A stretch of DNA of 40,872 nt from assembly GCA_049664445.1 (NCBI GenBank), contig JBATFE010000468.1, positions 1 to 40,872 of the forward strand, in the 5' to 3' direction. The stretch is from Gammaproteobacteria bacterium. GTDB taxonomy: Bacteria; Pseudomonadota; Gammaproteobacteria; UBA9214. Every line of letters begins with the position of its first letter. Within the stretch, counting starts at the first letter, position 1. Position numbers and translations under genes: made by a program. This document shows, piece after piece, positions 3,871-14,622 of this stretch. The notes beneath the pieces were generated by a model. That model ran no database searches and had not been told where the DNA came from. It saw only the letters and a list, made by a program, of their open reading frames with translations.

Positions 3871-4368
3871 TCAGTAGAAGAACATGTAACCTGCAGCGAC
3901 AACGACGATGGTAACAAGCAAATAGGTGAGCATATTGCCCTCATCCTGTTGCGCAGCAATGGCCGAGATGAACTCCCGGGCCTCTTGTACCAGTTCCTGA
4001 ATCGCGGCCTGGTGTTTGACCATAACTTCCTTGACGTTGGCACGTTTCAGCTCCGCTTCCCTCGCGACGTCCTCACGGGTCGTGTGATAGTGTTTTACGT
4101 TTACGTACTTGCTCCCGGACATGGCCTCGTCATTTCCGGCTGACATCAATTCATCCTCCAGTTGCTGTATCCGGTCTCTTTCCCACGCGTTGATGTTTGC
4201 TAACTTCCGTTCATAGACTGTATGACACAGTCTGAATATAGCGTCACCACGTCCCTGCTCCGCCCAGGAGACCAGCTTCTCGGGTGCTATTAACTCGGCC
4301 GTCACAGCACCAGGGCTTGCTGTCTCTGAATACAGGTGCTGCGGGAGTTCCAATTCGGATATCTTCAT
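3871..4368 (-). CDS. Hypothetical tail-anchored protein with a charged, probably coiled-coil region
   Basis: The ORF ends in a single C-terminal TM helix (LTYLLVTIVVVAAGYMFFY), preceded by a charged helical region (ERDRIQQLEDEL..., AREAELKRANVKEV). The ATG at 4368 is preferred over the GTG at 4395. No family recognised. Confidence 0.5.
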   Translation of the reverse strand: MKISELELPQHLYSETASPGAVTAELIAPEKLVSWAEQGRGDAIFRLCHTVYERKLANINAWERDRIQQLEDELMSAGNDEAMSGSKYVNVKHYHTTREDVAREAELKRANVKEVMVKHQAAIQELVQEAREFISAIAAQQDEGNMLTYLLVTIVVVAAGYMFFY

Positions 4369-4390
4369 GTAGTGCCCCGGATGGCTGATT

Positions 4391-4408
4391 ATCACAATAT
4401 ATTGTGAT
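4391..4408. promoter_or_regulatory. Perfect 18-bp palindrome ATCACAATATATTGTGAT, a candidate operator
   Basis: Self-complementary on direct reading. It sits about 23 nt upstream of the 4368 start, in the divergent region shared with the MerR/ParA operon. Confidence 0.45.
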
Positions 4409-4614: not shown

Positions 4615-4642
4615 TTGACAAATGTGGCCGCTCAAGCATAAT
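4615..4642 (+). promoter_or_regulatory. Near-consensus sigma70-type promoter for the MerR/ParA operon
   Basis: TTGACA (4615-4620), a 16-nt spacer, then CATAAT (4637-4642), about 40 nt upstream of the TTG start at 4681. Confidence 0.5.
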
Positions 4643-4680: not shown

Positions 4681-5157
4681 TTGGATCAGGGGTTTTCCAC
4701 AAGCCAGGTCTGCAGGCTCACCGGTCTGAGTGCGCGACAGCTGGGATACTGGCGCAAGACCGGGCTGCTCTCCCCGGCGCAACACACACCTGGCGGACAT
4801 GCCCGCTACAGTTTTATTGACCTCATCTCATTGAAAACCGCAAGCCGGCTGATCGCCGCGGGTGTTTCCGTACAACGCATCCGGCAATGCCTGCAGTCAT
4901 TAAGTCGCTTTCTGCCAAACACCGACACCCCGCTTCAGGAACTCTCACTGGTGGCCACCGGCGATGTGGTGCTGGTATTGCGCAGTGGTGCCGCCTTTGA
5001 TGCCCTGACAGGTCAGGAATGGATACTCCAGGTAGCCGATTTTGAACGCGAGGCCCGGCAGTTGTTAAGCAATCACTCAGTGCCTCGTCAGCGGGAGCTT
5101 TTCAGGGAGCCCTCCGCCCCGAATTTGGAAAAAATAAATCGTTTAAGCCAGGGATAG
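4681..5157 (+). CDS. MerR-family helix-turn-helix protein, first gene of a 4-gene operon
   Basis: FSTSQVCRLTGLSARQLGYWRKTGLLSP...GGHARYSFIDLISLKTASRLIAAGVSVQRIRQCL is a typical MerR-type HTH plus wing. The HTH begins at residue 5, so the TTG at 4681 (GAGGA 9 nt upstream) is the only plausible start. Confidence 0.75.
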   Translation: MDQGFSTSQVCRLTGLSARQLGYWRKTGLLSPAQHTPGGHARYSFIDLISLKTASRLIAAGVSVQRIRQCLQSLSRFLPNTDTPLQELSLVATGDVVLVLRSGAAFDALTGQEWILQVADFEREARQLLSNHSVPRQRELFREPSAPNLEKINRLSQG

Positions 5158-5262
5158 CCGTTGTCAATAATCAGGGCCAAGCGATACCAGTGGCGGGCTA
5201 CCGGTATCCGGATACCCGTATAAAGCGTGGTTTGTAAACAGGCCACGATGGAGGAAGCCAGC

Positions 5263-6354
5263 ATGCATGTCATTGCAATTGTCAACCAGAAGGGAGGCTG
5301 TGGAAAAACCACCACGGCCATCAATCTTTCCGCTGCACTGGGGCAGCAGAATGCACGCGTATTACTCATCGATATGGACCCCCAGGGGCATGCATCGCTG
5401 GGACTCGGGGTGGCGGGTGCCGAACTGGCGGGTCTCTATGAGCTACTGAAAGGCGAGTGTCGCCTGGACGAGGTCATCCAGTCGGGCGTCACCCGGGGCG
5501 TGGACCTCATCCCGGGTAATATTTCACTGGCTGCAGCCGAGCATTTGCTTGCCGATCAAGCGGACAGGGATCGTCAGTTGGCACGGCATCTGGCGATGCT
5601 CGGGGGGCGTTATGACTGTGTAGTCCTCGATTGCCCGCCGGCGCTGGGTCTGCTGTCGGTGAATGCATTGCGGGCCGCAGACCGTGTCGTGATACCGGTG
5701 GAGCCCAGCCTCTATTCACTGGATGGTATCGAGCGCTTGCGGGAGACCATCTACCTGCTTGCCAGCCAGTATGACATGCAGCCATCCGTTACCCTGCTTG
5801 CCAACATGTTCGACGTCCGCACGCGCATCGCTCGCAACATGTTCGAGATGCTGGAGTCACTCCCGATCGATCTGTGTGCTACCCGGATACGCAATTCTGT
5901 ACGCGTGCGTGAAGCGGCCTGTCACGGGGCTCCATTGACCGATCATGCACCACGTGCCCCGGTAACCGGTGATTTCCGGAACCTGGCGGAGGAGCTGCTC
6001 GGTAGCATGCTGCAGCACGTGCGCAGTGAAAAGGCACACGCCATCGAAACACAAGCTGATAATCCTGCTGCCGCCACCATGATTACCGAAAGCGACAACC
6101 TGAAAGAAGTGGTGTTCCGCTTCGACAATACGAAATTTAAACGGGTGCAGATTGCCGGAGAATTCAATAACTGGGTTCCTGACAAGAACGTGGAAACCGA
6201 AATTCAGGATGGTGCCGTGCAGAAGAAACTGCGGGTGAGGCCCGGGGGATATGAATATCGTCTGATCATCGACGGTGTCTGGCAACAGGACCCGGCGAAT
6301 CCGAATGCGGCACCCAATGATATGGGGGAATACAATTCGCTATTAAACGTTTGA
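5263..6354 (+). CDS. ParA/Soj-type deviant Walker A ATPase fused to a C-terminal CBM48/AMPK-beta-like glycogen-binding domain
   Basis: N-terminus MHVIAIVNQKGGCGKTTTAINLSAAL (KGGxGKT with the signature lysine), then LLIDMDPQG and VVLDCPP. The C-terminal 85 aa (VVFRFDNTKFKRVQIAGEFNNWVPDK...GGYEYRLIIDGVWQQDPANP...GEYNSLLNV) align with the AMPK beta CBM (GSFNNW, YKFFVDGQW.HDP, VNNI). GGAGGA lies 7 nt upstream of the ATG at 5263. Confidence 0.85.
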   Translation: MHVIAIVNQKGGCGKTTTAINLSAALGQQNARVLLIDMDPQGHASLGLGVAGAELAGLYELLKGECRLDEVIQSGVTRGVDLIPGNISLAAAEHLLADQADRDRQLARHLAMLGGRYDCVVLDCPPALGLLSVNALRAADRVVIPVEPSLYSLDGIERLRETIYLLASQYDMQPSVTLLANMFDVRTRIARNMFEMLESLPIDLCATRIRNSVRVREAACHGAPLTDHAPRAPVTGDFRNLAEELLGSMLQHVRSEKAHAIETQADNPAAATMITESDNLKEVVFRFDNTKFKRVQIAGEFNNWVPDKNVETEIQDGAVQKKLRVRPGGYEYRLIIDGVWQQDPANPNAAPNDMGEYNSLLNV

Positions 6355-6365
6355 CGGGGGGAGTC

Positions 6366-6983
6366 ATGCACAATCCAGCTTGGCGGCCAGCCCGGATGCA
6401 TACCGGGCGTCTGGCCAGTATCCAGCATCACTTTATCGATGAACGCCCGGCAGTTCGCGACACCGGGAAGCAAAGGATCATCCATACCCTGCCGGTGCAC
6501 ATGGCAGTCGCGGCAGGGCATCCCGCCAATGCCTTGCAACCACACTACCTGGTGGATGCCTTGACCCGGCAGCTCAATATACAAACGTCTGCCGCTGCGG
6601 AGCACCCCGACTGGCAACTGGAGGCCATCCCGGCCGGGCGTAGAGCAACGAATGCCGACCGGGGTTTCATTCTGGTCTTTGCGACAGCGAATATCGAGGG
6701 TGTGCGCTTGGCATATGCCGGTATCAAACAGCTTTCCGCTGCGCCGTCACGTCGCTTTGGGGTGCTGTTCAGCGGTGCAGACGACGTTGAGTTCGCGCGC
6801 CACTGCCAGCAGCGACTGACATCCGGTGCCATGCGGTTTCTTGGCATCCGACTTCATGAACTGGGGCATTTGTCGGCTCCCGGGCCGGATTTCAGTGCAG
6901 ATCTGGCACGTCTGGCCACAGAGGTTTACCGGCTTTGGGGTGCTCATTCAATAGATAATCATCTGGAGGATACTCACACATGA
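6366..6983 (+). CDS. MinD/ParA-like protein lacking a recognisable Walker A (degenerate P-loop NTPase partner)
   Basis: The C-terminal two thirds (ADRGFILVFATANIEGVRLAYAGIKQL...RFGVLFSGADDVEFARHCQQRL...FLGIRLHELGHL) follow the MinD/FlhG layout (aD.vivvt.pe..s..dAYa.iK.l...lvvN...). No GKT or GKS motif occurs anywhere. The start is either ATG 6366 (GGGGGGA upstream) or TTG 6351. The stop overlaps the next ATG (ATGA). Confidence 0.6.
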   Translation: MHNPAWRPARMHTGRLASIQHHFIDERPAVRDTGKQRIIHTLPVHMAVAAGHPANALQPHYLVDALTRQLNIQTSAAAEHPDWQLEAIPAGRRATNADRGFILVFATANIEGVRLAYAGIKQLSAAPSRRFGVLFSGADDVEFARHCQQRLTSGAMRFLGIRLHELGHLSAPGPDFSADLARLATEVYRLWGAHSIDNHLEDTHT

Positions 6984-7498
6984 CATTACAAATTCATGCC
7001 GTCACGGAAATCGACTCATCTGACCTGCGCAGCCTGGTGGTCGACAATCTGGGTGCATTGCTTGGAGAAGGGGCCAGGCTCATCGAAAATATGCCGCAAA
7101 TAGATGGCTGCTGCCTTGCGACATCAGATACGCATAATGGCCCGGTGTTGCTCAGTTTCGATGCAGTCGATGCGCAGCGGGCATTGCTCACCGGTCTCGT
7201 CAGGTTAGATCAACTGGGCGGTGAAATGGCGGCATTGTTCCTGCAGGATTACCACCCGCCAACAGAGTTACTGGTACTGGCCCCGGAGGCACCTCCCGGG
7301 CTGACACTCTTCGGTGAAGCATGCCCCGTTAGCTGGCGGTGTATCCAGGTGCTGTCCGTTAATGGCGAGTTCGGCATGGTGATTGCCCCGGTCGTTGAAG
7401 AAACGGCCGCAGCAGCGCTCATTCCCCGGGAGCGTCAGCCGACGATCGTTGAATCAGTACTCAACCCGGAAGAAGAGCAGCACTTCAGTCAGCTATAG
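6980..7498 (+). CDS. Hypothetical protein, fourth gene of the MerR/ParA operon
   Basis: 172-aa ORF, translationally coupled to the preceding gene by an ATGA overlap at 6980-6983. Composition matches its neighbours. The C-terminal tail is acidic (NPEEEQHFSQL). No family recognised. Confidence 0.55.
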   Translation: MTLQIHAVTEIDSSDLRSLVVDNLGALLGEGARLIENMPQIDGCCLATSDTHNGPVLLSFDAVDAQRALLTGLVRLDQLGGEMAALFLQDYHPPTELLVLAPEAPPGLTLFGEACPVSWRCIQVLSVNGEFGMVIAPVVEETAAAALIPRERQPTIVESVLNPEEEQHFSQL

Positions 7499-7750: not shown

Positions 7751-8110
7751 TCAGTCCATGGGCGATTCAGGGCAGGGAAAGGCTTCTATCAGTGCCTCGA
7801 GCACCAGTCCGTCAGCATCTAAATGCAGTTTCTCGGGATGTCCGGACAAGTATTTCTTTACAACAAGGGTTGCTTGCGAGTGTGTGGATTTATACGGGAA
7901 GCAAAAATATTTCATATTTTTCACAACACTCATTACGCCTACCACATACCCGATACACATACCGTCAGATGTGTTTGCTGGCGTATCGAGATAAGAAATA
8001 CATATTTTTTTCAGCAACGCACCACTTACCGCCTCCATCTCTGCAGCAACATTACTGCACATGACAGTGCCGAGCAGTGTCGCTGCGCCGATCATTGTTG
8101 TTCGTTTCAT
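7751..8110 (-). CDS. Secreted small protein resembling the Rap1a/Tai4 family (T6SS amidase-effector immunity proteins)
   Basis: Signal peptide MKRTTMIGAATLLGTVMCSNVAA. Family-like pattern C.GYVVGV ... FCFP ... KKYLSGHPEKLH ... EAFPCP with conserved Cys spacing. The assignment is from memory of the family profile and has not been searched. Confidence 0.5.
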   Translation of the reverse strand: MKRTTMIGAATLLGTVMCSNVAAEMEAVSGALLKKICISYLDTPANTSDGMCIGYVVGVMSVVKNMKYFCFPYKSTHSQATLVVKKYLSGHPEKLHLDADGLVLEALIEAFPCPESPMD

Positions 8111-8339
8111 GGCAAATATCCTTTATCCTTGTGTTTATCACCTTGTCACGGATCGCTGCCAGTACGCACAGGGCATAAACGGTAAAACATTACATAGTCT
8201 ATAGCTTGCAAAGACCCTTTATCCGCCCATGTAAATGGGCCGATTTCAGTGCGTGACTGTTATATTGCGACAAGTCTAAACAATATATCATGCTGCACAC
8301 TTCTTTCTGATACTGCCTGTACAGGCCTTGAGACACAGA

Positions 8340-8873
8340 ATGCACACCTCCTATATAGTTTGCGGCAGTCCAGGCTCGGGTAAATCGACGTATGCCAGAC
8401 AACTCGCTGCTGCCAGGCATGCGGCCCTGCTGGACATTGACACGGTGACCGAGAGGCTGGTTCGAGTTGCACTTGTTCAATCCGGACGTAGCCAGGATGA
8501 TCGCGACTCCGGGTACTTCAAGAGAAACTTTCGTGAACCAATTTACGAAACACTCTTCGATATAGCCAGGGAAAACCTGCCTTTTCTGGATGCGGTCATT
8601 GTCGGCCCCTTCACAAAGGAGATCAAAGATCCGGACTGGCCGTCGACACTTTGCATGCGCCTTGGCAGTTCAATAGAGGTTCACTATGTACAGTGTGCAC
8701 CTGAGATCCGCAGGCACAGACTCGCTCACCGGGGTGATGCACGTGACCTGGCAAAGTTGAGTGACTGGAAAAACCATATTCAATATTATGGTGATGAGAG
8801 CCCTCCGGTATTCGAACATGTTCTTGTTGATGGATCGAATCCGGAGGGATACATAAGGAATATTCAGAACTGA
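8340..8873 (+). CDS. P-loop kinase-like ATP-binding protein (AAA_33/zeta-toxin/gluconate-kinase-like fold)
   Basis: Walker A at the N-terminus (YIVCGSPGSGKSTYARQLA), then LLDIDTV and a later RHRLAHRGD lid-like motif. The ATG at 8340 is preferred over the TTG at 8328. Confidence 0.6.
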   Translation: MHTSYIVCGSPGSGKSTYARQLAAARHAALLDIDTVTERLVRVALVQSGRSQDDRDSGYFKRNFREPIYETLFDIARENLPFLDAVIVGPFTKEIKDPDWPSTLCMRLGSSIEVHYVQCAPEIRRHRLAHRGDARDLAKLSDWKNHIQYYGDESPPVFEHVLVDGSNPEGYIRNIQN

Positions 8874-9878: not shown

Positions 9879-11246
9879 TCATCGATATGCCTTGCGGTAC
9901 AGCCCCAACACAAGAACACAGAGTGCAAGCAGCAACCAGTCTCCGGATCTCTCCGAACCAGAGTGATGCTCAGCCATGCTACATCCTCCGCCACCACCAT
10001 TGCCTCCCGTATTACCTGCCCTGATCGCAGGTGTGCCAGGGTCTACAATAACTCCATTGGCTGTCAGGTCCGAGTCACCTCTTTTCCCATCGACGAAATG
10101 CAAGATCACTACATTGCCACTGAATTCAGCACCTGTCTCACCATCGAAACCAAACTCATACAGGTGATCAACAGGATTGTCCGGTGTTGGCCCAAATTTA
10201 AAATACTTGATTGGGCGTTCACCTTCTGCGAGGTGAATTTTTATCATTACATCACCACCCGGGACCACATTCTTTACTTCAAAACCCAAAAAGCCCTGAG
10301 TAAAATTTAATCCGCTTAAATCTTTGTTTGAGTCTGATTGCAAGAGAATATATGAACCGTCTGTAATGCTGAGATTCTTGAGTAGCAAGTTAGGTTCAGT
10401 CTCTACCGTGACATATCCACCATTAACCACATCTACCAGAGAGGAAACATTGGCTTGTTGTTTATCCGGGATCCCATCACCATTACCATCGCCTTTATTT
10501 GGCCCAGCATCTTCAACCCGGTCAATTACACTGTCACCATCAATATCTACACCAATAGAAATTATTTTTACGAGATTCTCTGGTGCCACATCATTAAGAA
10601 AATCCGTTGGGAATAAAGGATCGTTAACGAGCATATTTAATAAAGGAGAATCATCGAATGAGATAAGTCCATTACACTTACCTGTATTAAAAATGAAATA
10701 ACTACTGCAACGCTGTTCCCCAACGATAGAATCAATCACGTCCATCCCATCGATTACTTGTGCGAATACCGTGAACCCACCATTCTGGTTATCCAGATTT
10801 TCCGAATTGTCTGCAAGATTAATAAAGAATTCACTGGTAGCACTATTCGGATCACCTGGAGACTTGGCCATTGCTATAGTGCCACGAATATTTGACATCC
10901 AGAATTCATTAATAACCGGAGGATCAGTTGGTATTTGGCTGGTACCATCCCCAAAAAAATCACCCTGATCGGGTTCAAATATATAACCACCCATCTGCAG
11001 AACAAAATCAGGTGCACTACGATGAATGAATGTGCCGTCATAGTCACCGTCATTAACGTAGTTCATAAAGTTGGCCACTGTCAGTGGTGCCACCGTGTCG
11101 AACAACTCTATATCAAATGAACCCAGATCCGTTTGCACGCGAACATAAAAGGCAGCAGCTGACAGTGACGGGAGGAGTAGCGCGGTCAGCAGCAGGCAGG
11201 GCAGAGAAAGGTTTGTGTGAATGATTCTTGTCGTTCTGGAATTCAT
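9879..11246 (-). CDS. Secreted cyclophilin-type peptidyl-prolyl isomerase with Ca-binding Asp-rich repeats, a choice-of-anchor-like domain and a C-terminal sorting-signal-like tail
   Basis: Signal peptide LLLTALLLPSLSAAA. Cyclophilin core (FDIELFD..APLTVANFMNYV...FHRS..DFVLQMGG ... GTIAMAK......SEFFINL ... FTVFAQVIDGMDVIDSI). Asp-rich repeat DIDGDSVIDRVEDAGPNKGDGNGDGIPD. Choice-of-anchor-like motif VDGKRGDSDLTANGVIVDPGTPA. Tail is GGNGGGGGCS, a spacer, a TM helix (WLLLALCVLVLGL) and then YRKAYR. Confidence 0.8.
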   Translation of the reverse strand: MNSRTTRIIHTNLSLPCLLLTALLLPSLSAAAFYVRVQTDLGSFDIELFDTVAPLTVANFMNYVNDGDYDGTFIHRSAPDFVLQMGGYIFEPDQGDFFGDGTSQIPTDPPVINEFWMSNIRGTIAMAKSPGDPNSATSEFFINLADNSENLDNQNGGFTVFAQVIDGMDVIDSIVGEQRCSSYFIFNTGKCNGLISFDDSPLLNMLVNDPLFPTDFLNDVAPENLVKIISIGVDIDGDSVIDRVEDAGPNKGDGNGDGIPDKQQANVSSLVDVVNGGYVTVETEPNLLLKNLSITDGSYILLQSDSNKDLSGLNFTQGFLGFEVKNVVPGGDVMIKIHLAEGERPIKYFKFGPTPDNPVDHLYEFGFDGETGAEFSGNVVILHFVDGKRGDSDLTANGVIVDPGTPAIRAGNTGGNGGGGGCSMAEHHSGSERSGDWLLLALCVLVLGLYRKAYR

Positions 11247-11679
11247 AATATTATTCTCAATAGTTCAATTCTTGTCCTGATAGCCTCATGAAGAACCGCT
11301 CTATGCATGGCCGCTGAACAATTTAATACTACCTTGTTCACCTGTCCCAGCCAATTGAAGACTAACGGAAATCAAATCATCACTTTAATCATGCCATGAC
11401 AATCAATAGTCACCGCTGTATTGGTCCACCCGCAGCACATCGTTACACCGTAACCGAACCATTATTCATAACCACATGTTTTCACTAGAATTGTCTTGAT
11501 AACGGGTTGCTATGGCCCCGTAAAACACTGAATTACTTATTGATTCAGACTGAATCCCGTTAAAGTTTGCACCCCTTCGCCCGATTGTGTCTGAGAGATG
11601 ACCGCTTTCAGCGGAGTACGTCATCTTGCTTATTAACATTCATAGCTGTTCAGGCATAAAAGGATGGGCGAGCAATACG

Positions 11680-14622
11680 ATGTATGAGGATTACGAGAAG
11701 GGGGGCTCTCCTGGACAGCTAACCGAACGACAAATGTCGTCAGCCGCTACCGGTCCCTCTACCAGCGAACACCGCAGCATCAATCGTTGGCAGTTCCGTG
11801 CCGACCAGGTCCGAATGCTGTACCAGCAGGTACAGATAGAATTAATCATCAGCATGCTGTTTTCCGTCATCGTTATAACAGTGTTCTGGAACAGCATGCC
11901 GCACTCGCTCCTCATTGGCTGGGCTACCGCCGTTATTATCAGCGTTTGCATGCGCATACTGTTCATATCGGGTAATTCAACCGACAATACTGGCGACAGA
12001 ATTAACGTTTGGGGACAGCACTACATCACCGGTGCCGCAGTCTCGGGGATGTGCTGGGGAAGTCTGGGTATTATCGCTTCGATACACGGTGATCTGATAC
12101 AACAGATATTCGTTTTTGTCGTACTCGCAGCAATGTCCCTGACTGCTTTCGTTTCCATGCAATCTTCACCCAAAACCATCAGCGCCTTCGTGCTACCGAC
12201 ATTATTACCCTCAACCGCCTGGTTTTTCTATCAAGGCACTACGCTGTCACTGGCAATCGGGGCAGTTGCAATAATCTTTTCAGTGGTCATGCTGTTTTCG
12301 TCGCGCAGCATGCGCAATATTCTCGCTAAATCTTTCAGTCTTGGCTCACACAACACCGACCTCATCAAGAAGCTTGTTGTCACACGTGAATCTGCGGAAA
12401 AGTCCAGGAAGCATGCGGAGGAAATGAATCTAAAGCTTCAGGAACAAATGCAGGTAAGGCAACAGGCTGAAGAGCGAACACGCAAATCCGAGCAACGCAT
12501 GACTGCCATCTTTGACAGCATGCAGGATATCATTTACCAAACTGACATCAATGGTCGCATCCAGTGGACCACACCTTCTATAAAACAGTTACTGGGCTAT
12601 GAACCGCATGAATTGCTTGATAACAATATCAAGGACTTTTACGTATGCATCACCGAGCATGACGACCTGAAACATTCTCTGGATGTCAATTACGGTCGCT
12701 TGCAGCACTTTGAGACATGCCTGCAACACAAGGACGGCACACATATATGGATATCGGAAAACTCACACTACAACTATGACGAAAACGGTGACCCCATCGG
12801 CATAGAAGGTACCATTCGCGATATCACCGCCCTGAAGCAGGCGAAAGAAGCACTGCACCAGGAGAAAGAGCGCGCCCAGGTCACACTCGGATCAATTGGT
12901 GACGGCGTGATCACCACCGACCTGCAGGGCAACATCGAGTATATGAATACTGTTGCCGAGCAGTCGACCGGCTGGAAACTGCAGGACGCCCGCAGCAAAC
13001 CAATGTCCGAGGTATTCAGGCTTGTTGAGGAAAAATCCCTTGAATCACCGCCGGATCCCGCTGCACTCTGCCTTGAGCAGGGTAAAAGCACCATGCTTGC
13101 AGGACACCTGTTACTGCTCCACCGCTACAGAAACCAGAAACTGTCAGTCGAAGTGAACGCCTCCCCCATTCGTGATTCGAAAGCGGATATTTCCGGTGTC
13201 GTGCTGGTTTTCCATGATGTGACAGTACTGCGTGGACTTGCCAAGAAGATGTCATACCAGGCAACCCATGATTCCCTGACCGGGCTTCTGAATCGACGCG
13301 AATTCGAAAATCGGGTTACACAGGCGATTGAAAACGCACGTACCGAAGACGTACGACATGCTATTTGCTACCTGGATCTGGATAACTTCAAGGTCGTCAA
13401 TGATACCAGCGGCCACTTTGCCGGTGATGAACTGCTCAAGCAATTAACCATCAAGCTGCGCATAGAATTGCGCGAGGCGGATACCCTCGCAAGGCTGGGT
13501 GGTGATGAATTCGGCATACTCCTGGAAGGCTGTTCGCTGGAGAATGCACACGAACCAGCCGAGGCAATCAGAAAAGTCGTCGAGGACTTCAGGTTTGTCT
13601 GGGATAACAGGTCATTCAGAATTGGCGCCAGCATCGGGTTGGTCCAGATTACCCAGGACAGCGGCACACTCACCGACTTGTTAAGTGCTGCTGATTCTGC
13701 CTGCTACATAGCCAAAGAACAGGGCCGAAACCGTGTGCATGTCTATCAACCTGATGACGAGGCTGTCAGCGAGCGTCATGGCCAGATGCAATGGGTGCAG
13801 CGCATACAGGATGTCCTTGAACAGAATCGTTTCAGGCTGTTCTTTCAGCCGATCGCAAGACTTAACCGTGCTGCAGACGAGAAAAACCTGACACACGGGG
13901 AAGTTCTGCTTCGCATGCTCGATGAAAACAACAAAATAGTTGGCCCTGGATCATTTATTCCTGCTGCCGAGCGATACCAGTTGATGCCTGCAATCGATCA
14001 ATGGGTTGTAACGAATACCTTCAAGATGCTGACGCTGGACAAGAAAAAGGTTGCAGAACATGTCAGCTCCTGCTGCATCAATCTTTCAGGACAATCAATA
14101 TCCGATATCCGGTTTATGGATTTTTTGATCGGCGAAATAAATAATAGCGGGGTACAGCCGGAATTACTGGTCTTTGAAATTACCGAGACGGCTGTTATCG
14201 CAAACCTGTGCAATGCATCAAAATTAATAACTACACTACGTGAAATGGGATGCCGGTTTGCGCTGGATGATTTTGGAGTTGGCTTGAGTTCCTTCGGTTA
14301 TCTAAAAAACCTTGCCGTTGACTACCTGAAACTTGACGGCTGCTTCGTGAAAAACATGGTTGTCGATAACATTGATCAATCCATGGTGGCTGCGATCAAC
14401 CAGATTGGTCATACCATGGGCATCAAAACCATCGCTGAATTTGTTGAAGACGAGGAAACCCTCGAAGCCGTTCGCAATGTAGGTGTTGACTATGCCCAAG
14501 GCTATATCATCGCAAAACCAATACCTATTGAGCTAGCCCTGTATAGCGAACCAATTGATATCGGGACAAATGGAGAACAGCAGCAACCGGCCAGTCTCAA
14601 GACCGGATCGATAATTCACTGA
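11680..14622 (+). CDS. Membrane sensor with PAS-PAS-GGDEF-EAL domains (c-di-GMP synthase/phosphodiesterase)
   Basis: N-terminal block of about 6 TM helices, a coiled-coil linker and two PAS-like segments. RLGGDEFGILL has READ (RxxD I-site) 5 residues upstream. EAL domain motifs are QPI...GEVLLR, EITE, DDFGVGLSSFGYLK, AEFVE and QGY. The start is uncertain (TTG 11626, ATG 11680 or ATG 11734). Confidence 0.85.
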   Translation: MYEDYEKGGSPGQLTERQMSSAATGPSTSEHRSINRWQFRADQVRMLYQQVQIELIISMLFSVIVITVFWNSMPHSLLIGWATAVIISVCMRILFISGNSTDNTGDRINVWGQHYITGAAVSGMCWGSLGIIASIHGDLIQQIFVFVVLAAMSLTAFVSMQSSPKTISAFVLPTLLPSTAWFFYQGTTLSLAIGAVAIIFSVVMLFSSRSMRNILAKSFSLGSHNTDLIKKLVVTRESAEKSRKHAEEMNLKLQEQMQVRQQAEERTRKSEQRMTAIFDSMQDIIYQTDINGRIQWTTPSIKQLLGYEPHELLDNNIKDFYVCITEHDDLKHSLDVNYGRLQHFETCLQHKDGTHIWISENSHYNYDENGDPIGIEGTIRDITALKQAKEALHQEKERAQVTLGSIGDGVITTDLQGNIEYMNTVAEQSTGWKLQDARSKPMSEVFRLVEEKSLESPPDPAALCLEQGKSTMLAGHLLLLHRYRNQKLSVEVNASPIRDSKADISGVVLVFHDVTVLRGLAKKMSYQATHDSLTGLLNRREFENRVTQAIENARTEDVRHAICYLDLDNFKVVNDTSGHFAGDELLKQLTIKLRIELREADTLARLGGDEFGILLEGCSLENAHEPAEAIRKVVEDFRFVWDNRSFRIGASIGLVQITQDSGTLTDLLSAADSACYIAKEQGRNRVHVYQPDDEAVSERHGQMQWVQRIQDVLEQNRFRLFFQPIARLNRAADEKNLTHGEVLLRMLDENNKIVGPGSFIPAAERYQLMPAIDQWVVTNTFKMLTLDKKKVAEHVSSCCINLSGQSISDIRFMDFLIGEINNSGVQPELLVFEITETAVIANLCNASKLITTLREMGCRFALDDFGVGLSSFGYLKNLAVDYLKLDGCFVKNMVVDNIDQSMVAAINQIGHTMGIKTIAEFVEDEETLEAVRNVGVDYAQGYIIAKPIPIELALYSEPIDIGTNGEQQQPASLKTGSIIH

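Follow-up and report, generated by a model that had tools for sequence, protein, structure and literature searches.

ATPases of the ParA/MinD superfamily are known to position chromosomes, plasmids, carboxysomes, chemoreceptor arrays, flagella and the divisome. In the McdA/McdB, PpfA/TlpT, ParC/ParP and PomXYZ systems, a nucleoid-bound ParA-type ATPase spreads a large cytoplasmic cargo. Storage-polymer granules can be tied to DNA by simpler means, since PhaM and PhaF are single polypeptides that possess both a polymer-binding and a DNA-binding part and thereby provide for even inheritance of the granules. Here we analyze a gene, which we call ParA-CBM48, located on a 40,872-nucleotide (nt) stretch of DNA from a Gammaproteobacteria bacterium (lineage UBA9214; contig JBATFE010000468.1, positions 1 to 40,872), referred to below as the window. 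The gene encodes a Soj-type ATPase joined by a variable low-complexity linker to a C-terminal carbohydrate-binding module (CBM) of the AMPK1_CBM/CBM48 type. We propose, with a probability of roughly 45%, that the operon to which it belongs is a nucleoid-based system that tethers glycogen granules and distributes or partitions them. The gene and the parts of its product are as follows:

5263..6354, + strand: ParA-CBM48 gene, 363 amino acids (aa); open reading frame (ORF) 5227/5263..6354
5263..6000, + strand: Soj/ParA-type deviant Walker A ATPase domain, residues 1-246, with K10 (the signature Lys), K15, D37/D39 and D123
6001..6099, + strand: low-complexity flexible linker, residues 247-279, the length-variable block in the family alignment
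6100..6354, + strand: CBM48/AMPK1_CBM glycogen-binding module (binding predicted), residues 280-363, with the stop codon

An earlier note, made from the sequence alone, had placed the start of the gene at 5263 and had read its product as a canonical ParA/Soj ATPase, followed by a low-complexity linker and a CBM48 module in the same protein. Our analysis agrees with this reading. ATG 5263 is the real start, because full-length homologues begin with MH(I/V)IAIVNQKGG and because GGAGGA lies 8 nt upstream. The fusion architecture is confirmed by Pfam matches to AAA_31, CbiA and AMPK1_CBM within a single protein, and the expected low-complexity segment, EKAHAIETQADNPAAATMITESDN, was found at residues 256-279. 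By its sequence, ParA-CBM48 belongs both to the ParA/MinD ATPase superfamily and to the Pfam AMPK1_CBM/CBM48 family.

The identity of the C-terminal module does not depend on a marginal score. AMPK1_CBM (PF16561), the Pfam model against which the earlier note had suggested aligning the domain, matches residues 284-363 over profile positions 4-79 of 85 with E=1.7e-9 and 38.2 bits, above the gathering score of 26.8. When the last 109 residues were searched with phmmer against PDB sequences, the AMPK beta1/beta2 CBMs came first (E=2.6e-6 to 2e-5; 4yef 2.6e-6, 1z0n 3.8e-6), followed by the starch phosphatases SEX4 and LSF1 and by a GH13 pullulanase; the match is far beyond chance. In the phmmer alignment, the residues of rat AMPK beta1 correspond to those of ParA-CBM48 as follows:

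W100 of AMPK beta1: W304 (FNNW)
K126 of AMPK beta1: R333 (YEYR)
W133 of AMPK beta1: W340 (DGVWQQDP)
L146 of AMPK beta1: M354
G147 of AMPK beta1: G355
T148 of AMPK beta1: E356
N150 of AMPK beta1: N358

The correspondences named in the earlier note, namely the Trp pair, the Asn and the replacement of Lys by Arg, are all correct in this alignment, and its view that the contact residues are retained and not decayed is upheld by their conservation. W304, W340 and G355 are present in 83 of 83 homologues, which come from Gammaproteobacteria, Myxococcota, Spirochaetes, Planctomycetota, Nitrospirota and others; position 333 is Arg in 81 of them and Lys in the other two, and N358 is Asn in 78, while position 354 is variable and occupied by hydrophobic residues (F, L, V, M, A) or, in some homologues, by Thr. 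W304 and YEYR belonged to the patterns by which the loci were retrieved, but W340, G355 and N358 did not, and an independently retrieved set of homologues revealed the same invariance of the contact residues. In AMPK, the W100G and K126Q substitutions abolish glycogen binding, and W133L and G147R weaken it (PMC6274970). The predicted glucan-binding site is of the AMPK-beta type, intact and near-invariant across phyla, and the module is predicted to bind glucan. The AMPK beta CBM, SEX4/LSF1 and PTST share with ParA-CBM48 the same PF16561 module, whose glycogen-contact positions are occupied by two stacking Trp residues, a basic residue, a Gly and an Asn. As it does in PTST, the CBM48 would bring another activity to a particle of alpha-glucan. 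Unlike these proteins, ParA-CBM48 is bacterial, cytoplasmic and fused to a P-loop ATPase, and it further differs from AMPK beta in having Arg in place of Lys126, in not conserving the S108 regulatory loop and in lacking a kinase/phosphatase context.

A phmmer search with the CBM only against 1.84 billion cluster representatives returned 4361 proteins at E<=1e-3, 577 of them at E<=1e-10. Its nearest relatives that are not part of the fusion are proteins in which CBM48 is repeated four or five times in tandem, and a GH57 enzyme that carries three CBM48 copies together with a glucodextranase C-terminal module; all of these are alpha-glucan proteins. The tandem-repeat proteins deserve mention in their own right. 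P0317, P0336, P0314 and many others are ~480-aa proteins composed of four AMPK1_CBM/CBM48 repeats and form a large, apparently uncharacterised group, in which up to 16 repeats occur in a protein of 1812 aa, each repeat being ~35% identical to the CBM of the window.

The N-terminal domain is equally well defined. The AAA_31 match (E=2.6e-50) spans residues 1-169 and, at 171 bits, exceeds its cut-off of 27; CbiA scores 69 bits, its cut-off being 25.4. The motif NQKGGCGKTT holds the signature K10 and the Walker A K15, both of which are kept in all 76 homologues that include the ATPase domain; D37 and D39 of the Walker A' motif (DxD) and D123 of Walker B are invariant in the domain-bearing homologues. 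The ATPase is a complete deviant Walker A enzyme of the Soj type. The top PDB sequence matches are the ParA family protein 8ray (E=2.4e-41) and Thermus thermophilus Soj (E=2.1e-38), with MinD at E ~1e-15 to 1e-19 and McdA at ~1e-16 for the ATPase half. Besides the deviant Walker A motif with its signature Lys and the Walker A'/B Asp residues, ParA-CBM48 shares with the Soj proteins of T. thermophilus (1wcv/2bek) and Bacillus subtilis two DNA-binding basic positions. Non-specific DNA binding by Soj is reported, after work by Hester and Lutkenhaus in 2007, to be mediated by R189 and R218, which, in the numbering of B. subtilis Soj, pair with R186 and R214 of ParA-CBM48. Position 186 is Arg in 74 of 80 homologues, and position 214 is Arg or Lys in 79 of 80. 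Since R186 and R/K214 align with the DNA-binding arginines of Soj, ATP-dependent, non-specific DNA binding by ParA-CBM48 is plausible.

The fusion is widespread. Each of the best 120 matches in 5.8 billion proteins carries PF16561 together with the ATPase families, at 49-91% identity, and those of the 120 that bear a name are listed simply as 'AAA family ATPase' or 'chromosome partitioning protein'. When one genome per GTDB species was scanned with patterns from the C-terminal half of the protein, at least 467 relatives were confirmed. The carriers include Gammaproteobacteria (Thiohalobacter, Thiogranum, Acidiferrobacterales), Myxococcota, Spirochaetes-labelled metagenome-assembled genomes, Planctomycetota including Kuenenia, Gemmatimonadales, Desulfobacterales and Nitrospirota; the database survey of the combined ParA and CBM48 architecture that the earlier note had proposed thus places it in at least 467 species-level genomes of several phyla. 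Searched with its CBM part, the fusion is essentially absent from the 72,556 plasmids of PLSDB, and the window is an ordinary housekeeping region of a chromosome (his, tatC, trkAH, ntrYX, fmt, topA); on these two observations we rejected a plasmid or phage origin. We found no description of the fusion in the searchable literature. The fusion itself is not a discovery, because the architecture is visible in public precomputed annotations; what appears to be new is to read it, with its set of partners, as a widespread module that organises glycogen.

The likeness to Soj might suggest that ParA-CBM48 is an ordinary ATPase for the partition of chromosomes or plasmids. The MerR-like protein encoded upstream of it would then serve as a centromere-binding adaptor, and the CBM48-like domain as a protein-protein or other non-glucan module. 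The strong similarity to Soj and the database label 'chromosome partitioning protein' fit such a role, as does the fact that MerR-type winged-helix proteins can anchor chromosomes, RacA being among the weak PDB matches of the MerR-like protein (E=0.028). We nevertheless consider this explanation very unlikely. The near-absolute constraint on the sugar-contact residues across phyla would be unexpected for a non-glucan role, and the near-absence from plasmids and the housekeeping character of the window also speak against it. Moreover, with the NCBIfam ParA_partition equivalog (NF041546), which has a cut-off of 180 bits, the protein reaches only 128 bits, and it scores far under the cut-offs of the RepA, SopA and PrgP models, so that no partition equivalog is reached; the minD_bact model gives 61 bits against a cut-off of 212.9. 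No ParB-like family was detected among the operon neighbours by Pfam, NCBIfam or Foldseek on the partners. With its low equivalog score and no ParB partner beside it, ParA-CBM48 is not demonstrably a ParABS partition ATPase. It differs from Soj/ParA in adding a C-terminal linker and CBM48 and in having, instead of a ParB/parS partner, a MerR-like protein and a ParA-fold pseudo-ATPase, which are encoded in the same operon. The remaining elements of this operon are:

4615..4642, + strand: sigma-70-like promoter (TTGACA-16 nt-CATAAT, 11/12), ~40 nt before the MerR-like gene and likely the operon promoter; a consensus match only, in a region that has 5 such sites where shuffles lead one to expect 3.4
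4681..5157, + strand: MerR-family helix-turn-helix (HTH) protein, 158 aa (Pfam MerR_1, E=1.6e-14), with a non-canonical conserved C-terminal domain
5199..5220, no strand assigned: near-perfect palindrome of 22 bp, TACCGGTATCCGGATACCCGTA, in the MerR-ParA spacer; it may be an operator or form an RNA hairpin between the cistrons
6366..6983, + strand: predicted ParA/MinD-fold pseudo-ATPase, 205 aa, without Walker A and with a disordered, conserved N-terminal peptide (NPAWRPA...RLASIQHHF)
6980..7498, + strand: alpha/beta protein, 172 aa, the fourth operon gene, with a conserved acidic-aromatic C-terminal tail (NPEEEQHFSQL)

The 205-aa ORF begins 11 nt past the ParA-CBM48 stop codon, behind the Shine-Dalgarno sequence GGGGGGAG, and is itself overlapped by the 172-aa ORF through ATGA. 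ParA-CBM48, lying 3' of the MerR-like gene, is thus predicted to be co-transcribed and translationally coupled with the two downstream genes. The same four-gene cassette was found between unrelated flanks in Thiohalobacter sp. IOR34 and on further contigs of Gammaproteobacteria, and the operon is a self-contained unit with changing flanks on the chromosomes of several phyla. The suggestion of the earlier note that a direct fusion of cargo module and ATPase would remove the need for a ParB- or McdB-like partner is therefore not supported, since coupled, conserved genes follow ParA-CBM48 and a conserved MerR-like gene precedes it. In three operons of Thiohalobacter-like Gammaproteobacteria (L067:5444-7531, L080 and L082), the MerR-like protein and both downstream proteins accompany a free-standing CBM48 of 97 aa that is nearly identical to the CBM of a fused relative (P0118). 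Since these loci keep the MerR-like gene, the CBM48 and both downstream genes, the CBM48 seems to work with its partners and not alone.

The MerR-like gene lies directly upstream of ParA-CBM48 in Gammaproteobacteria, Nitrospirota, Myxococcota and Spirochaetes (phmmer E 1e-34 to 1e-82), and its product is conserved across phyla through residue ~125, well past the HTH. Its PDB sequence matches (GlnR/TnrA, CvkR, CarH and, weakly, RacA) are confined to the HTH, and we therefore rejected Alr3614/CvkR as its identity. In Gammaproteobacteria and Nitrospirota, the protein ends past its folded part with a conserved P-x-Q-x-E-L-F; this end and the tail of the 172-aa protein occur in the same lineages, and both may be docking peptides. 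The spacer between the MerR-like gene and ParA-CBM48 is 105 nt long, and the exact 14-mer core of its palindrome is unique in the window. A conserved MerR operator at this site was considered and discarded, as hairpins occur at the same spacer in other loci but share no sequence.

The 205-aa protein has no Pfam or NCBIfam match. Its AlphaFold2 model (predicted local distance difference test, pLDDT, 77.5, with the core >90) shows a flavodoxin-like alpha/beta core with a disordered N-terminus, and Foldseek placed FlhG (4rz3, E=3.9e-7) first, followed by FleN and MinD. By iterated profile searches, 60 of 82 loci have a member of the family directly 3' of ParA-CBM48, among them loci of Myxococcota, Spirochaetes and Desulfobacterales. 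Where Walker A would be expected, the alignment across several phyla shows GERDVVRA.. or AAGHPA.., followed by a typical NLAVE.ARLG helix, and this region reads as a degenerate P-loop; the disordered N-terminus bears a conserved L-x-x-I/V-x-H-H/Y-F motif. Sequence comparison gave no significant link, neither by hhalign against the ParA-CBM family (probability 0.2%) nor by a PDB profile search, which returned only FleN (E=0.68). The connection to the ParA fold is made by the AlphaFold2 model, Foldseek and the degenerate P-loop in the alignment, which together indicate a pseudo-ATPase of the ParA/MinD fold that bears a conserved peptide at its N-terminus. FlhG/FleN are its nearest structural relatives, from which it differs in lacking the P-loop entirely. 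It is through disordered N-terminal peptides of this kind that partner proteins regulate ParA ATPases. In view of its fold, degenerate P-loop and N-terminal peptide, the 205-aa protein is therefore the best candidate for a regulator or dimer partner of the ATPase; its conserved disordered N-terminus is of the sort sought in McdB-like partners, but it has no similarity to McdB. The 172-aa protein is present in Gammaproteobacteria and Nitrospirota, with weaker matches at a few other loci. Searches of Pfam, NCBIfam and PDB sequences gave no match for it, and Foldseek assigned no significant fold, giving only weak restriction-endonuclease-like matches (E>=0.06).

These partners lend themselves to another, regulatory explanation, in which the CBM48 would report the glycogen load, and the ATPase, sequestered on glycogen or released from it, would alter its own action and that of the pseudo-ATPase on the MerR-like factor. 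Such a switch would tune carbon-storage or stress genes and would resemble the action of FleN/FlhG on FleQ or a type Ia ParA repressor. The MerR-family protein is indeed the most strongly conserved partner, over its whole length and in four phyla, and the best structural matches of the pseudo-ATPase, FlhG/FleN, regulate a transcription factor. The variants without an ATPase, which keep the MerR-like protein, the CBM48 and both partner genes, agree with it as well, as do the palindrome between the MerR and ParA genes and the syntenic genes for an ECF sigma factor and a PMM/PGM protein in Myxococcota-type loci. However, a simple sensor would need neither the Soj-type DNA-binding positions nor the full catalytic machinery, both of which are under strong constraint; the copies in Planctomycetota lack a MerR neighbour, there is no evident target regulon, and the sequence of the intergenic palindrome is not conserved. 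We regard a glycogen-sensing switch of this kind as rather unlikely.

The linker is the sole poorly conserved, length-variable part of the family alignment and ranges from ~20 aa to ~400 aa. Representatives of 591 and 682 aa exist, and a Nitrospirota orthologue (L063:1063-3291) reaches 742 aa, with its ParA and CBM48 parts separated by an acidic, coiled-coil-like linker of ~400 aa that includes a duplicated segment (EAMDATRSDEERELRELEEQIAALEA); genes of the pseudo-ATPase and 172-aa types come after it. This behaviour fits that of a flexible tether.

A flexible linker that tolerates such insertions would also suit a MinD-like switch for which the glycogen particle, and not the nucleoid, is the surface. 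ATP-dependent dimerisation would double the valency of the CBM48 and drive the ATPase onto granules, where it would recruit or exclude proteins until the pseudo-ATPase triggered hydrolysis and release. In MinD, dimerisation drives membrane binding via an amphipathic helix, and the arrangement of an ATPase, a linker and a weak C-terminal surface-binding module in ParA-CBM48 mirrors this design, although its C-terminus is a CBM48 and includes no amphipathic membrane helix. The N-terminal peptide of the partner is likewise reminiscent of MinE and other stimulators. Against this stand the ATPase sequence, which is far nearer to Soj (~1e-38 to 1e-41) than to MinD, the retention of both Soj DNA-binding positions and the lack of any identifiable client protein, and we judge the MinD-like switch to be distinctly unlikely.

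From the domains, motifs, conservation, operon structure and partner fold described above, we infer DNA binding, glucan binding, a role for the pseudo-ATPase and a cellular outcome that together make up the granule-positioning system proposed at the outset. ATP-bound sandwich dimers of the Soj-like domain would coat the nucleoid via non-specific DNA binding, each offering two weak CBM48 modules on flexible linkers, and many dimers would jointly hold a glycogen particle at the nucleoid surface by avidity. The pseudo-ATPase would control hydrolysis and release, via its N-terminal peptide or by heterodimerisation with the ATPase. Turnover would keep the association dynamic and spread the granules along the nucleoid, so that they would not clump or be expelled to the poles and daughter cells would inherit similar reserves. 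The MerR-like protein may be the operon regulator, a site-specific DNA anchor, or both.

So conceived, ParA-CBM48 would functionally most resemble McdAB-type cargo positioning and, in its outcome, PhaM/PhaF. With McdAB it shares a small dedicated operon and a partner with a disordered N-terminal region, and with all four cargo-positioning systems named above it shares the proposed logic. Its design is nonetheless unlike either: the cargo module sits on the ATPase and not on an adaptor, one partner is a degenerate ParA/MinD-fold protein and another is MerR-like, and similarity to McdA is limited to the E-value of ~1e-16 given above. PhaM and PhaF, which act on polyhydroxybutyrate/polyhydroxyalkanoate (PHB/PHA) granules, are passive histone-like tethers without an ATPase, whereas DNA binding by ParA-CBM48 would be ATP-gated and partner-regulated.

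Several points weigh against the positioning of glycogen granules. Both the glucan binding and the DNA binding are predicted from sequence, and at the position where K126Q abolishes binding by AMPK, the ParA-CBM48 family has Arg, albeit a conservative replacement. The window, Thiohalobacter and the other gammaproteobacterial loci that we examined contain no adjacent glycogen-metabolism gene. The three operons with a free-standing CBM48 lack the ATPase domain, which means that ATP-driven positioning cannot be the whole story, and planctomycete copies have none of the three partners at the locus. In canonical ParA systems, the ATPase stimulator sits on the cargo; since here the ATPase itself would do so, the Brownian-ratchet logic is not directly transferable. 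Two kinds of neighbouring gene were considered as evidence for a glycogen link and set aside as too weak and possibly a matter of lineage synteny. One is a PFK gene, which follows downstream in no more than 3 loci, all of them planctomycete. The other, a gene for a phosphomannomutase/phosphoglucomutase (PMM/PGM), keeps its place in 23 loci (L042:10737-12158 and 22 others), mostly of the Myxococcota/Spirochaetes type and one gammaproteobacterial, at a distance of 2-5 kb downstream and on the opposite strand; its presence there may reflect lineage synteny or a tie to the supply of glucose-1-phosphate. Loci of this type also share, in synteny, genes for an ECF sigma factor, a DsbA-like protein and two unknown proteins of ~220 aa.

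Some other genes of the window were noted in passing. Just 3' of the operon lie a Rap1a-family (type VI secretion immunity) gene, whose product has a signal-peptide-like N-terminus (7751-8110, - strand), and a gene for a zeta-toxin/AAA_33-like kinase (8328-8873, + strand); no type VI secretion system genes are visible in the window. Further downstream, a 455-aa ORF (9879-11246, - strand) matches cyclophilin-type peptidyl-prolyl isomerases over residues 34-175, its other ~280 residues having no family match, and a 998-aa PAS-PAS-GGDEF-EAL protein is encoded at 11626-14622 (+ strand); a GGDEF-EAL protein is also encoded just upstream of the cassette in another locus (L002). Upstream of the operon, a divergent 174-aa ORF (3871-4395, - strand) has a hydrophobic C-terminus and no significant family match, and it was not found beside the cassette in the other loci examined.

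It is quite possible, although we would place it somewhat short of even odds, that the four-gene module is the first dedicated ATP-driven organiser of a bacterial polysaccharide granule, present in at least 6 phyla, which binds its cargo via a fused CBM48 and is controlled by a catalytically dead paralogue and not by a ParB/McdB-type adaptor. In the ParA field, it is unusual both for the motor to carry the cargo-binding domain itself and for the conserved partner to be a degenerate protein of the ParA fold. The proposal is easily testable, given that ParA-CBM48 is a small soluble protein with a defined set of partners, that its predicted DNA and glucan binding are separable by point mutations and that a cultured carrier, Thiohalobacter sp. 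IOR34, is at hand. Glycogen is the most widespread bacterial carbon store, yet the placement and inheritance of its particles in bacteria are largely unexplored, and we found no report in the searchable literature of its positioning by ParA/MinD proteins. If our reading is true, glycogen would join the cargos of the ParA/MinD ATPases, and the pairing of an active ATPase with a pseudo-ATPase would be a new design for the family.

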